64,000 bases of DNA from Escherichia coli. GTDB taxonomy: Bacteria; Pseudomonadota; Gammaproteobacteria; Enterobacterales; Enterobacteriaceae. Shown here piece by piece: positions 1-3,381 of this stretch. The stretch lies in the NCBI RefSeq assembly GCF_016903815.1, contig NZ_CP069973.1. One strand, given 5' to 3'. The translations under genes were made by a program, and so were the position numbers. The number at the start of each line of letters is the position of its first letter. Position 1 is the first letter of the stretch. A model generated the notes under the pieces. It saw only the letters and a list, made by a program, of their open reading frames with translations, ran no database searches and was not told the DNA's origin.

Positions 1-714
1 TGCGTAACTGTTTTTCCACTATGCTCATAAACCATACTGCCAGAAGCACGGGGAAAACCGTTCCCTGATAGCCAATCATGGCGATTTCAAAACCGAAGAA
101 GTTCATTGTCTGAAATCCCGCAGCAACGCCCCAGGCATTTGTGAGTGCCGGGTGAGTCAGAATCCCTCCTAATGTCGCGCCAAGATAAGGATTTCCACCA
201 AATTCACGAGCAGCAGTAAAGCCAATAAGGATGGGGAGAATAATAAATGCGGCTGAACTGCACATATCCAGCAGGATATAAATCGCATTATCGGTATTCA
301 CCCAGCCATATGTTTTCACCATTCCCAGAAGCCCCATTAATAAACCAGAAGCAACAATGGCTGGAATGATGGGGACAAAAATATTAGAAAGTAGCCGTGC
401 TATTCGCTGAAAAGGATTGAGTTTTTGAGCGGCGAGTCGAGCGATATCTGCTTTACTGGATTCGCTAATACCTGCAACCTGAATAAAGGCAGCATAGACT
501 TTATTAACCACGCCGGTGCCAAAGATAATTTGCATTTGCCCTGAATTACGAAAACAACCTTTCACTCCATCAATCTGGCCAATGGCATGTTGATCGGCAA
601 GTGTGTCGTCAACCAGTACCAGCCGTAGGCGAGTGGCGCAATGTGCTGCACTGGCGATGTTCTCCTTACCACCTAATAAAGGAAGCAACGATTGGGCGAT
701 TTTATCGAAATCCA
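1..714 (-). CDS. scrA: PTS sucrose-specific EIIBC component, N-terminal part (gene continues beyond window start)
   Basis: Minus-strand translation from ATG at 712-714 reads MDFDKIAQSLLPLLGGKENIASAAHCATRL..., a BglF/ScrA-type EIIB-EIIC N-terminus; sits directly downstream of scrK-scrY in the scr operon order. Confidence 0.8.
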
Positions 715-775
715 TATAACCCTCTAATTCATTGTTATTTCAGTAAAAACTTCACATCTGTGAGGTTGTCTGGTA

Positions 776-2293
776 TTAAAACCAGGTTTCCATTTGGACA
801 CCAAAATTCCACTCTCCGCCAGTATTGAAACCACTGCTGCCGAAAGCGTCATTGCTGGCAAAATCATCAAGTTTGCTGCTCCAGTCCATCCAGGTGGCAA
901 ACAGGCGAAGCTCCGGACGGCTAAAGAAATTATTGATATCGTTAGCTTTTAGAGTTGGAGCAAAGGTGAGTTTATAGAAACTGCCGTTTACGGCGTTGTG
1001 GTTTTGATACCCCTTTGGTTTCAGATCCATATATTGATAGCTACCCTCAAAGGCCAGAGCAAAATTCTGTGTTACCTCTTTGATCAGACGTGTATTGAAG
1101 GTCACCCATTCGTAGCTATCGCCTTTGACGTAACGATCTTTACTGCTTTGTGCGAGAATTGCTGGTGCGACATACCAACCGCTTCCCAGAGGTGTTGTGC
1201 CGTAAGATGCGAAGCGCCAGGTATTCGCCTCAGACAGCAGGGCGCCATCGGAGCCAATCCCTTTGACTTCCGCACCCAGGCCATGGCCATATAGCAGTGC
1301 TGTTTTTGCCGTCCCTTCACGCAGGCCATAGAAAGTGTCATTGTGCAGACCAACTAACGCATGTACGCCAGTATTTGCAGCATCAGTTTGAATGAGATCA
1401 CCATTGGCATCTTTTCGATCATCATTATCTTTTGCCCGTAATCCGCTAACCATCAACTGGAAGGGGCCTGCATAATGATTCATGGTGAGGATGTAATTCT
1501 GAACGTTATTGTCGATATCATCAAGATCGCCGAAATTACGTCCGTAGAGAGAAAAGTTACTGCGAAATGTATCGTTCCATTTTACGTCATAGATACCGCC
1601 GCCCGTTCCCGCTAAAAATACGACATCGGAGTCTAACCAGTGAATATCAAAATTGTCGCGATCAAAGCGTTTACCAGCCCAGACAGTACTGTCTTTGAAT
1701 GCTCCGGTAAAACTTGGTAATGCGCCCAGTTCGGCAAAAGCCTGTCGGATATTCAGGTTACTGGAGCCGCCAGTCCAGTCGTTGTAATCTCTTTGTCCGT
1801 CAGCCAACATTGCTTTAAAGCGTGTGGTCGCACCGTTATCCAGTGTTTGTTTATGTTCTACATTTAACTCGACATAGGTATCGGCTTCATTTCCCAGACG
1901 GCCAACAGCTCCACCAGTTTCACCTGCGGGAGTCAGATACGGCCCACTTTTGCTACTGGAAGCGGCATCATTCATCAGTAACCCGGAACGGGCATAGCCA
2001 TGAAACTCAAAACCACTGTTTTCTGCGGATTTCTGTTCGAGCTGAACTGTTCTCTGTGCTACTTCTTGAGTTGTTAGCTGATTTTGTTGTTGTGTTTCAG
2101 CCAGTTTCTGAACCTGTAATTCAGCTGTTTTGGCCCTTGCTTCTGCCGCCTGGGCGCGGGATTCCGCATTTTTTAAACGTTGTTCCAACGCCGCCAGTCG
2201 AGATTCGATACTGCTAATATCCGTTTGCGCATGTACCGTTGTAGCACCGGTCAGCAAAGCAATTAACACTGCCAAAGTTGTTTTTTTATACAT
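776..2293 (-). CDS. scrY: Sucrose porin ScrY (LamB-family maltoporin-like, N-terminal coiled-coil extension)
   Basis: 505-aa ORF with signal peptide [22 protein letters not shown], coiled-coil segment and LamB-like barrel ending WF; matches my recollection of ScrY. Confidence 0.9.
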
Positions 2294-2460
2294 AATTTGT
2301 CGCGTCCCATCAGAGAATTATAAAAATTGCTAAAATGCTAAACCGGTTTAGGTGTTGATAATAAAGCTGACTTTTTAGCCAAAGCAATTATTTTCGCTAA
2401 ACCGATTTAGTAAATGTGACAGGCACGACAAATCGGGTTACAGATACAACAGCAGGATCA

Positions 2461-3381
2461 CTATTGTGAAGGGAGATCGTGTTGTCGGGGTAAGGCGGTC
2501 ATCGCGCCTTTAGCCGTGGTCGCCAGAGCACCACAAATCTGAGCTTGTACAATGATTCGTTCAAGCTGTCTGGTATTTGTTGGTATTCCAGAATCAGCCA
2601 GACCGGCAAGTAATCCAGCGACAAAAGCATCTCCTGCCCCGGTCGTATCGACGACAGAAACAGGTTTGGCGGGATAGTGGATAAACTGCCCCTGAAAATA
2701 CACAAGTACGCCATTTTTTCCTTGTGTGATAAGCAATAAAGTCAACGAATAACGTTGTACTAATGAATATGCGCCTTGCTGAACCTGGCTTTCGCCACTG
2801 ATGAATAGCAACTCTTCTTCGGACAATTTAGCGATATTCGCCAGCGAAAGTGCGCGATCAAGGTATTTCCTTAATAGCGCTTCACTCTGCCAGAGATCGC
2901 TGCGGATATTGGGATCAAAACTGATGTTTCCGCCAGCCTGACGTATTTTCTCCATAGCCAGAAATGCGGTACTTCGGGAAGGTTCTGCACTGAGCGCAAT
3001 GGAACAAAGATGGAGCCATTCACCCGGCCCAAATGCAGGAAGGCCATCAGGTTGTAAAAAAAGATCGGCACTTGGGCGTACCATAAAGGTAAAGTTTCTT
3101 TCTCCTTGCTCATCAAGTCCTACAGCCACAATTGAGGTGCGATGTTGAGGATCAAGAGACATATAACGTGTATCAACATTTTCTGTACTCAGTGTCTGAT
3201 ACATAAAGCGACCGAAAGGATCATCGCCAACTTTGCCAATAAAGGCACTTTTCCCCCCCAGCCTTGCGATACCGACTGCAACATTAGCAGGCGCCCCGCC
3301 AGGACACTGTAGTAGTCTCCCCTGGCTTTCGGGTAATAAATCAACAACCGCATCACCAAGTACCCATACTCTTGTGCTCAT
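2461..3381 (-). CDS. scrK: Fructokinase (PfkB/ribokinase family)
   Basis: 306-aa ORF MSTRVWVLGDAVVDLLPE... with C-terminal TGAGDAF motif typical of PfkB sugar kinases; first gene of scrK-scrY-scrA. Confidence 0.88.
   Translation of the reverse strand: MSTRVWVLGDAVVDLLPESQGRLLQCPGGAPANVAVGIARLGGKSAFIGKVGDDPFGRFMYQTLSTENVDTRYMSLDPQHRTSIVAVGLDEQGERNFTFMVRPSADLFLQPDGLPAFGPGEWLHLCSIALSAEPSRSTAFLAMEKIRQAGGNISFDPNIRSDLWQSEALLRKYLDRALSLANIAKLSEEELLFISGESQVQQGAYSLVQRYSLTLLLITQGKNGVLVYFQGQFIHYPAKPVSVVDTTGAGDAFVAGLLAGLADSGIPTNTRQLERIIVQAQICGALATTAKGAMTALPRQHDLPSQ

Follow-up and report, generated by a model that had tools for sequence, protein, structure and literature searches.

Evidence for a PTS-dependent sucrose regulon of the Escherichia coli lineage in a pheV-associated chromosomal island

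Analysis of a 64,000-nucleotide stretch of Escherichia coli DNA (contig NZ_CP069973.1, assembly GCF_016903815.1; hereafter the window) revealed that its first part is very probably the promoter-proximal half of a PTS-dependent sucrose regulon, organized as scrK and scrYAB(R). The regulon belongs to an E. coli lineage of scr and takes the form of a 6.6-7.1 kb cassette within a P4-integrase island at the tRNA-Phe gene pheV.

In scr systems the ScrY porin is the outer-membrane route for sucrose, and the EIIBC protein ScrA imports sucrose with phosphorylation to sucrose-6-phosphate. Lacking a IIA domain, ScrA receives its phosphoryl group, as established for scr, from the host EIIA-Glc. ScrB converts sucrose-6-phosphate to glucose-6-phosphate and fructose, and ScrK is the kinase for the fructose freed by ScrB. 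The LacI-type repressor ScrR targets two 14-bp palindromes around the scrY promoter and a third before scrK, and is released by fructose or fructose-1-phosphate. Sucrose use in this strain would proceed through ScrY, ScrA, ScrB and ScrK, in that order, under the control of ScrR.

The scrK, scrY and scrA genes

The cassette and its genes occupy the following positions:

1..3498, minus strand: portion of the 6.6-kb scrKYABR cassette inside the window; similarity to the ST131 copy located between queE and ygcE stops at position 3498
1..715, minus strand: 5' part of scrA, sucrose-specific PTS EIIBC, codons 1-238 of 456 (TIGR01996 and Pfam matches)
776..2293, minus strand: scrY, sucrose-specific outer-membrane porin, 505 aa (PDB and Pfam matches)
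2461..3381, minus strand: scrK, ATP-dependent fructokinase of the PfkB family, 306 aa (NF006957, Pfam PfkB and PDB matches)

The ScrY product comprised a signal peptide, an N-terminal coiled-coil extension and a barrel of the LamB type. It matched the Pfam domains LamB (315 bits) and Sugarporin_N, and aligned with the sucrose porin of PDB entry 1A0S (also 1A0T/1OH2) at E=1.8e-226 with 77.0% identity over 413 aa. The visible part of ScrA carried the EIIB motif HCATRLR at Cys26, followed by the start of EIIC, and matched Pfam PTS_EIIB and PTS_EIIC. These 238 aa covered profile positions 2-248 of 461 in TIGR01996 (sucrose EIIBC) with a score of 340 bits; the full-length cut-off of 559 bits was out of reach because the window edge cuts scrA. 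The same 238 aa were 100% identical to the N-terminus of ScrA from strain 222, a 456-aa EIIBC. Both scrK and scrY were full length and identical to the copies in related strains. The three assignments are based on strong homology over intact reading frames, for which chance is no concern, and agree with a previous sequence-only reading that had named a fructokinase, a porin and an EIIBC in this order; all three genes are on the minus strand.

Operators and promoter of the scr regulon

Five regulatory features were placed upstream of scrY and scrK:

2338..2351, no strand: promoter-proximal ScrR operator, palindrome CTAAACCGGTTTAG, overlapping the expected scrY transcription start
2359..2387, minus strand: predicted scrYAB(R) promoter, with -35 TTGCTT (2387-2382), a 17-nt spacer and -10 TTATTA (2364-2359), between both operators
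2397..2410, no strand: promoter-distal ScrR operator, CTAAATCGGTTTAG, 59 bp from the proximal operator
2415..2430, minus strand: putative CRP-like site TGTCG-N6-TCACA, upstream of the scrY promoter, read from the sequence
3413..3426, no strand: operator-like palindrome CTAAATCGATTTAA, 31 bp upstream of the scrK start codon

The pattern CTAAAYCGRTTTAR occurred three times in the 64-kb window compared with 0.18 expected occurrences, and there were no sites other than these three at scr. The scr loci of Klebsiella and Pantoea, only ~70% identical overall, carried the three palindromes in matching positions, and the palindrome upstream of scrK was kept in the queE-ygcE copy (L004) and in two other scr loci (L005 and L006). 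In pUR400, as summarized in PMC11251922, two 14-bp operators flank the -35 and -10 elements of the scrY promoter; the arrangement in the window, with two operators around the scrY promoter and one at scrK, matched the published layout (PMC11251922). By these comparisons the ScrR operators and the layout of the scrY promoter are conserved.

Placement of the scrYAB(R) promoter draws on the sequence and the published operator layout and is thus a prediction. A consensus scan for promoters and terminators gave fewer promoter-like matches than shuffled sequence and did not return this predicted promoter. The only match of the scan upstream of scrY, TTTACT/AATAAT, was at odds with the published layout and was dropped, and the promoter was therefore set by the operator positions. 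The TCACA half-site and the spacing of the candidate CRP site were conserved in L005 and L006. An Rfam scan of window positions 1-9000 (E<=0.1) identified no RNA element besides the frameshift pseudoknot of an insertion sequence described below.

Integrity of the regulon beyond the window

Strains 222 and 2779 were 100% identical to the window across positions 1-5486. In these strains, and in the island-type relatives 98224, ETEC1716 and O177:H21 (five relatives in all), scrA (456 aa), scrB and scrR were intact and contiguous. We infer that the 3' part of scrA, scrB and scrR are likewise intact in the source genome. The sequence-only reading had expected scrB and scrR beyond the window start, as is the case in every close relative examined; it had called this position upstream, whereas, relative to the direction of transcription, both genes follow scrA in these relatives and are downstream of it. 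Growth on sucrose is predicted for the strain, and the cloned E. coli scr locus of strain SCU-147, which is 99% identical, was enough for growth on sucrose in a host negative for both scr and csc (PMC11251922). Rapid sucrose fermentation by the strain, if it occurs as predicted, would be relevant to biochemical typing and would not represent a new mechanism.

It is improbable that scr is present here in a non-functional or cryptic form, either through damage outside the window or because the upstream insertion sequence and the associated deletion disturb its expression. The island segment that carries scr is a hotspot of IS3-family rearrangement in which at least five architectures were seen. 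In two records an IS interrupted scr: IS2 lay within a plasmid-borne scrY in one, and IS5 within the cassette in the other. Loss of sucrose use through IS insertion in scrY has been described for ST62, and some scr-positive isolates of Stephens et al. grew slowly or not at all on sucrose (PMC11251922). In the window, however, scrK and scrY had the same full length as in the relatives, and the 117-bp stretch before scrK that also occurs in the queE copy, the three operators and the promoter region were all untouched. The scrA, scrB and scrR genes were also intact in the nearest relative, strain 2779. A functional regulon is the reading that we prefer.

Location of scr in a pheV-associated island

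Three features outside the cassette define its surroundings:

3499..4172, no strand: island-specific non-coding spacer, contiguous with scrK in 108 genomes
4050-4172, plus strand: C-terminal remnant of an IS66-type transposase, N-terminal 41 of 48 codons (Pfam DDE_Tnp_IS66_C)
30238..30259, plus strand: pheV 3'-end direct repeat, TTCGATTCCGAGTCCGGCACCA, which lacks one G of the tRNA sequence; distal island border

Outside the deletion described below, the window and strain 2779 were 99.98-100% identical. In strain 2779 an intact pheV (tRNA-Phe) and a P4-type integrase were located ~13 kb beyond the window start, ~9 kb from the scr cassette. The repeat at 30238-30259 sits just before kpsF, and the island lies between pheV and the kps capsule locus. 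Repeats of 22 bp from pheV and a P4-like integrase characterize the PAI-V-type island (PMC10272209). The scr-bearing island appears on this evidence to be a pheV-associated P4-integrase island of the PAI-V type, with its pheV end read in the near-identical strain 2779. The chromosomal island location proposed from the sequence alone is borne out by the distal repeat in the window and by the integrase and pheV in 2779.

Copies of the spacer with 83-86% identity were present in other islands without scr. A cobalamin riboswitch beside the spacer homologue of STEC434 was considered and rejected; its overlap with the match is confined to the final 34 nt, and the window has nothing that corresponds to it. 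The match of the transposase remnant to DDE_Tnp_IS66_C (E=5e-6) scored 26.9 bits, under the cut-off of 30 bits, and the 48-codon remnant is interrupted by the insertion of IS629.

IS629 and the 8.2-kb deletion

The insertion sequence next to the spacer was annotated as follows:

4173..5482, minus strand: IS629/IS1203, IS3 family, 1310 bp, with orfA at 5428-5102 and orfB at 5105-4215

This element had TG...CA termini with 25-bp imperfect terminal inverted repeats, matched NF033516 (IS3 transposase) and contained an ALIL frameshift pseudoknot at 5031-5147 (Rfam, 121.5 bits), in keeping with an orfA/orfB pair read through a programmed -1 frameshift. It was 99.8-99.9% identical to annotated IS629 of VT1-Sakai and of Stx2/Stx2a phages. 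Identical IS copies are called IS1203 by PGAP. IS629 and scr share one direction of transcription, and the gap between the scrK start codon and the element is 791 bp; the IS629 reported previously at about 800 bp from scr was thus correct in distance, and in identity by comparison with the phage copies.

Many genomes were identical in cassette and spacer as far as position 4172 but had no IS there, and in O177:H21 the native target ATGGCTGCGTT was uninterrupted. Because scr occupies this site also in relatives that lack the IS, IS629 did not bring scr. Judged from these genomes, IS629 arrived later than scr, in a sub-lineage, at a GCTG target that lies 791 bp before scrK; its proximity to scr is incidental and the element is no part of the module. 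That scr was the cargo of an IS629-based composite transposon, or was otherwise brought in by the adjacent IS, is highly improbable. The short distance to scrK and the shared direction of transcription would suit such an origin, as would the bracketing of some plasmid scr loci by IS26 or IS1, but the IS-free cassettes and the unbroken target in O177:H21 argue against it. Moreover, the annotation of strains 222 and 2779 shows no IS in the interval from scrR to the pheV integrase, and the queE copy had an IS at neither end (our locus comparison; PMC11251922). An IS-bounded composite transposon was rejected, as the IS is on one side only and IS-free relatives carry scr. Insertion of IS629 after the arrival of scr is the reading that we retain.

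Strain 2779 carried two identical direct copies of IS629, and the 8,228 bp between them were missing from the window, where a single IS629 is all that separates the scr side from a truncated mkoA (Mokosh). With this deletion of 8.2 kb, four neighbouring genes are gone and mkoA is truncated. GCTG was present on both sides of IS629 in the window, yet the flanks were not contiguous in IS-free relatives. The loss most likely resulted from recombination between two directly repeated copies of IS629, as judged by comparison with 2779. The kinase-side IS junction differed by 3 bp (GCT), with the IS followed by GCTGTTCATT in the window compared with GTTCATT in strain 2779, and therefore a simple crossover in a 2779-type genome cannot give the window exactly. 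One crossover between the two IS copies of 2779 was thus ruled out as the exact origin of the window; the standard figure-eight reaction of the IS3 family, followed on paper, did not give the observed joint. The scr-IS-mkoA arrangement of the window was found in no complete RefSeq E. coli genome, and in this set IS629 occupied that mkoA site, 3 bp off, in strain 2779 only.

Assignment of the kinase

The scrK product matched NF006957, an NCBIfam model named fructokinase, with 505.8 bits against a cut-off of 450. A PDB search returned the fructokinases 5EY7 and 5YGG as best matches (E=1e-97), followed by the Salmonella sugar kinase 1TYY (E=1.3e-73). In most RefSeq records the PGAP product name for scrK is 'aminoimidazole riboside kinase'. 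The possibility that scrK encodes such a riboside kinase, and not the fructokinase of the regulon, draws on that name and on the resemblance to 1TYY and can be given almost no weight, as the current NCBIfam equivalog is fructokinase and is matched above its cut-off, both solved fructokinases outscore 1TYY, and in all scr loci examined scrK keeps its position and an ScrR-type operator of its own.

Distribution of the scr cassette

Sequences with ~98.9% identity to window positions 1-3498 were present in 870 records. The E. coli-lineage scr was found in 987 of 5426 complete genomes, and 959 of its 998 places were chromosomal (39 plasmid); the pheV-island context was seen in 108 genomes. These counts do not fit the description of the window's scr as the classic regulon that is usually plasmid- or transposon-borne. 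That description suits the pUR400/Citrobacter/Klebsiella-type allele, which has ~70% DNA identity to that of the window.

The island copy (L001 8902-15498) and the O25b:H4 queE-ygcE copy (L004 3902-10497) were 99.1% identical over 6597 bp. A segment of 7,071 bp, including 461 bp beyond scrR, was common to the island copy and IncF plasmid copies, and the queE-ygcE copy shared less with the plasmid copies than the island copy did. One speculative proposal, which we consider unlikely as a whole, is that the E. coli-lineage cassette may be a discrete unit of 6.6-7.1 kb that moved among the queE/CRISPR2.2 position, the pheV island and IncF plasmids without recognizable mobile-element ends, with the pheV form and not the 'native' queE form exchanged with plasmids. 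In the same proposal, the unique scr-IS629-mkoA junction of the window might be very recent, perhaps within-patient, and might derive from transposase chemistry, with a joint 3 bp outside the IS end, rather than from plain homologous recombination.

Descriptions of the scr pathway, of how it is regulated and of its patchy occurrence in E. coli already exist, and the exact sequence is annotated in RefSeq genomes. The presence of scr in the pheV island is an ordinary trait that matters little beyond bookkeeping. Two modest additions to the literature consulted are that ~2% of complete E. coli genomes carry the E. coli-type scr in a pheV island and not beside queE, and that the DNA just upstream of the cassette is a hotspot of IS3-family deletions. 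The IS3-family events here led to loss of a small sugar-related gene cluster and disabled a Mokosh type I anti-phage system.

Comparison with known sucrose systems

The csc regulon (cscB, cscK, cscA and cscR at argW) likewise serves sucrose use with a PfkB fructokinase and a LacI-type repressor. In contrast to scr, it is a non-PTS system that relies on a proton symporter and an invertase, lacks both a porin and any PTS component, and occupies another locus (PMC11251922). No csc-type symporter or invertase was found within window positions 1-3500.

The Salmonella senftenberg conjugative transposon CTnscr94 is, like the island, a horizontally acquired carrier of scr. CTnscr94 integrates at phenylalanine tRNA genes, and the island of the window is at pheV. 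Unlike a conjugative transposon, the island of strain 2779 had no conjugation genes annotated anywhere. The presence of scr on CTnscr94 was described by Hochhut et al. 1997, as cited in PMC11251922.

The scr loci of the Salmonella plasmid pUR400 and of Klebsiella pneumoniae have the same five-gene order, two transcription units and protein families as the window, and the same three-operator layout, with two operators at the scrY promoter and one before scrK. The window differed from this classic allele in sequence, with ~70% DNA identity and 77% identity of ScrY to the pUR400 porin (PDB 1A0S). Compared with a Klebsiella-plasmid copy, ScrK was 68%, ScrY 74% and the N-terminal part of ScrA 91% identical.

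The closest known system is the 'native' queE-ygcE scr of phylogroups B2 and F, including ST131 and ST1193 (Stephens et al. 2024, PMC11251922), which has the same 6.6-kb scrK and scrYABR cassette with the same operators. In that collection, scr-positive isolates of B2 and F had the locus beside queE with few exceptions, and the text of the paper makes no mention of pheV (PMC11251922). The window and the queE-ygcE copy were 98.7% identical in ScrK, 99.8% in ScrY and 99.2% in the N-terminal part of ScrA. They differ in site: scr of the window is in the pheV island, whereas the native locus occupies the queE/CRISPR2.2 position.

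The scr genes and their naming

Three minus-strand genes in a row between positions 1 and 3381 were identified by profile and structure matches as scrK, scrY and scrA, as the sequence-only reading had proposed for a sucrose PTS module at this location. Overall, the window very probably contains the front half of an Escherichia coli-lineage scr regulon carried in a pheV island.

3381-2461, minus strand: scrK, 306 aa; NCBIfam fructokinase equivalog NF006957 (505.8 bits against a cut-off of 450)
2293-776, minus strand: scrY, 505 aa; LamB barrel with sugar-porin N-terminal extension
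715-1, minus strand: scrA, 5' part, 238 codons visible before base 1 of the window; EIIB motif HCATRLR and start of EIIC

A structure search identified fructokinases as the best solved relatives of ScrK (5EY7, E=1.7e-97), and ScrY matched the crystallised pUR400 sucrose porin 1A0S (E=1.8e-226), the two being 77.0% identical across 413 residues. The visible ScrA, cut by the window edge, covered positions 2-248 of TIGR01996, the sucrose EIIBC model with 461 positions. The operon reads from right to left with intergenic gaps of 167 bp (scrK-scrY) and 60 bp (scrY-scrA), and scrB and scrR are downstream of scrA, past base 1. All parts of scr within the window were intact and identical to the copies of its relatives. 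In the relatives' loci fetched for comparison (L001-L003, L009 and L010), RefSeq names the scrK product mostly 'aminoimidazole riboside kinase' and in a few cases 'cscK: fructokinase', and the current NCBIfam equivalog names this protein 'fructokinase'; the split is an annotation inconsistency and reflects no biological difference.

Lineage and distribution of scr

The scr genes had been taken for the classic regulon, usually plasmid- or transposon-borne and here chromosomal. A search of 72,556 plasmids revealed that 196 of 218 matching records were only 60-80% DNA-identical to the window scr, with plasmids of Klebsiella, Citrobacter, Enterobacter, Providencia and Pantoea at approximately 70%; compared with a Klebsiella-plasmid copy, protein identity was 68% for ScrK, 74% for ScrY and 91% for the N-terminal part of ScrA. 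Judged by sequence, the window scr is of an E. coli lineage and is not the textbook plasmid allele. Matches to window 1-3500 were identified in 987 of 5426 complete E. coli genomes, at 959 chromosomal places and 39 on plasmids. Identity was at least 99% for 118 records and approximately 98.9% for 870, the latter class being the locus described as native to phylogroups B2 and F by Stephens et al. 2024 (PMC11251922); in an O25b:H4 genome, scr of this class lies between queE and ygcE.

Alignment of the island and queE-ygcE versions revealed a common block of 6,597 bp at 99.1% identity, ending one base past the scrR stop and 117 bp upstream of scrK (window 3498). No repeats or IS were found at either end of the block, and at its scrK-side end similarity faded across the last 30-40 bp. 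An IncF plasmid copy had 7,071 bp in common with the island version, 461 bp of them past scrR, and only the 6,597-bp core in common with the queE version. Using scrK plus the island-specific spacer as query, the island context was detected in 108 genomes (2%). Copies of spacer 3514-4110 with 83-86% identity are also present in other, scr-free E. coli islands, beside sulfatase/porin or btuB-like genes.

Placement in a pheV island

Window 1-5486 was 100% identical to the chromosomes of E. coli strains 222 and 2779, in which a complete 456-aa scrA is followed by the sucrose-6-phosphate hydrolase gene (scrB) and a LacI-family regulator gene (scrR). The prediction that scrB and scrR lie past the window start is thus borne out in these two strains; for the window genome itself, we infer it. 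Approximately 9 kb past scrR both strains carry a tyrosine recombinase, beyond which strain 2779 has a tRNA-Phe adjoining yqgA and speC, which is pheV. Strain 2779 differs from the 64-kb window by one deletion and a 3-nt gap; everywhere else identity is 99.98-100% (2 mismatches in 48,057 bases), and this strain is the best available proxy for the left flank.

30238-30259: copy of the pheV 3' end, TTCGATTCCGAGTCCGGCACCA, directly before kpsF

With the recombinase in both strains, pheV in strain 2779 and a pheV 3'-end copy in the window, the scr genes belong to a P4-integrase pheV island of the 'PAI-V' type, with pheV on one side and the capsule locus on the other (PMC10272209). No conjugation genes were annotated in the island. 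Other contents of the window were as follows.

~9100-14000: decayed mobile-element and type VI secretion remnants as annotated in strain 2779 (IS66 tnpA/tnpB with broken transposase, integrase fragments, partial tssG and tssF pseudogenes)
~18000-30200: CP4-57-like module at the kps-proximal island end, up to the pheV repeat (TIR-domain protein, YagK/YfjJ protein, antirestriction protein, RadC, CbtA/YeeU toxin-antitoxin, DUF4942)
~31415-46936: group 2 capsule (kps) locus, conserved kpsFEDUCS and kpsTM around the serotype region, which in strain 2779 encodes a family-29 glycosyltransferase, CDP-glycerol glycerophosphotransferase, TPR protein and 'phage baseplate protein'
47856-64000: type II secretion (gsp-beta/yghD) cluster with pppA and sslE; sslE is an annotated pseudogene with internal stop in the 99.996%-identical strain 2779, and the window ORF is interrupted near 63968

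IS629 and its history

4173-5482: IS629, 1310 bp; orfA and orfB on the minus strand, 25-bp imperfect terminal inverted repeats, ALIL frameshift pseudoknot

Both the IS629 label and the distance of about 800 bp given before hold: the element shares 99.8-99.9% identity with annotated IS629 copies of VT1-Sakai and Stx2a phages, and 791 bp separate it from the scrK start codon. PGAP names identical copies IS1203. In many island-type genomes the match to the window stops at 4172, where no IS is present, and the native site in O177:H21 (ATGGCTGCGTT) is uninterrupted. These comparisons indicate that IS629 is a later arrival, with GCTG duplicated, and a bystander to scr. An IS-bounded transposon carrying scr was rejected, since island-type genomes have scr without an IS at this site. 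At 4050-4172 (plus strand) lies part of a 48-codon IS66-type transposase C-terminus remnant, split by IS629, with a Pfam DDE_Tnp_IS66_C score of 26.9 bits, under the cut-off.

In IS-free islands, scr is followed by a YheO-type regulator, sugar-phosphate isomerase, RidA, MFS transporter and IS66 and IS3 remnants, and further on by a NotI-type restriction-modification pair and a two-gene unit (515 aa and 1652 aa). Strain 2779 carries two identical, directly oriented IS629 copies, one adjoining scr and the other within the 1652-aa gene; the window has a single copy, and the intervening 8,228 bp are missing from it. As other strains carry different IS3-family deletions in the same stretch, the DNA beside scr is a rearrangement hotspot. 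The arrangement of neighbouring IS629 fragments in strain 2779 suggests that an IS629 entered another copy and that an inversion came next.

The junction reads IS|GCTGTTCATT in the window and IS|GTTCATT in strain 2779, compared with TTAGCTGCTGTTCATT in the native gene, a 3-bp (GCT) difference at the IS629-mkoA junction (window 5482/5483; strain 2779 locus L002, ~11459). GCTG is present on both sides of the window IS, the flanks of which are 13-20 kb apart in IS-free genomes. The 3-bp difference does not fit a plain crossover. The GCTG junction may have been present in the common ancestor, with strain 2779 later losing 3 bp; alternatively, transposase may have produced the window joint, or either of the two records may contain an assembly error.

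The minus-strand ORF adjoining the IS (5454-8678; 1074 aa, NERD and protein-kinase domains) is a cut-off MkoA of the Mokosh type I anti-phage system. The MkoA of IS-free relatives (1652 aa; PADLOC MkoA, 1305 bits) carries AAA_11/AAA_12 helicase domains at its C-terminus, and a 515-aa MkoB (207 bits) comes after it. In the window, IS629 has removed the helicase part and supplies the last codons and stop, and mkoB is gone; the Mokosh system is most likely dead. The missing 8.2-kb segment holds the four-gene cluster of YheO-like PAS/HTH regulator, sugar-phosphate isomerase/epimerase, RidA and MFS transporter (L002 12769-19686 in strain 2779; L003 20328-23781), which in other island carriers is immediately upstream of scr.

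Regulation and predicted phenotype

The pattern CTAAAYCGRTTTAR, with one mismatch allowed, occurred three times in 64 kb compared with 0.18 expected.

2338-2351: CTAAAYCGRTTTAR-type site upstream of scrY
2397-2410: CTAAAYCGRTTTAR-type site upstream of scrY
3413-3426: CTAAAYCGRTTTAR-type site upstream of scrK

All three sites recurred, in matching relative positions, in each scr locus compared, including Klebsiella and Pantoea plasmid loci in which the surrounding intergenic DNA has diverged. As summarized in PMC11251922 from Cowan 1991 and Jahreis & Lengeler 1993, the pUR400 scrY promoter has two 14-bp ScrR operators around -35/-10, with mutational support, and the ScrR inducer is fructose or fructose-1-phosphate. 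The window sites match this layout at the putative scrY promoter, TTGCTT-17 nt-TTATTA (2387-2359), assigned from its position between two operators; from the same layout, TGTCG-N6-TCACA at 2430-2415 is a candidate CRP site. The 117-bp region upstream of scrK and all operators are unaffected by the IS.

The scr system is an established sucrose pathway. Sucrose would enter via the ScrY porin and be taken up and phosphorylated by ScrA using host EIIA-Glc; ScrB would hydrolyse sucrose-6-phosphate and ScrK phosphorylate the released fructose, with the genes repressed by ScrR and possibly activated by CRP. A rapid sucrose-positive phenotype is predicted, as the visible parts are intact, the regulatory DNA is untouched and a cloned 99%-identical locus sufficed for sucrose growth in scr-negative, csc-negative E. 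coli (PMC11251922); the remaining genes of the locus are likewise predicted from relatives.

Comparison with known systems

The finding is real, rightly interpreted and ordinary; finished genomes already carry annotations of this exact sequence. Among known systems, the E. coli scr locus of Stephens et al. 2024 (PMC11251922) comes closest, and the window copy fits it on every feature tested. The pUR400/Klebsiella regulon has the same mode of action but only a distant sequence relation to the window scr. CTnscr94 and the pheV island have a similar type of integration site, and their likeness ends there.
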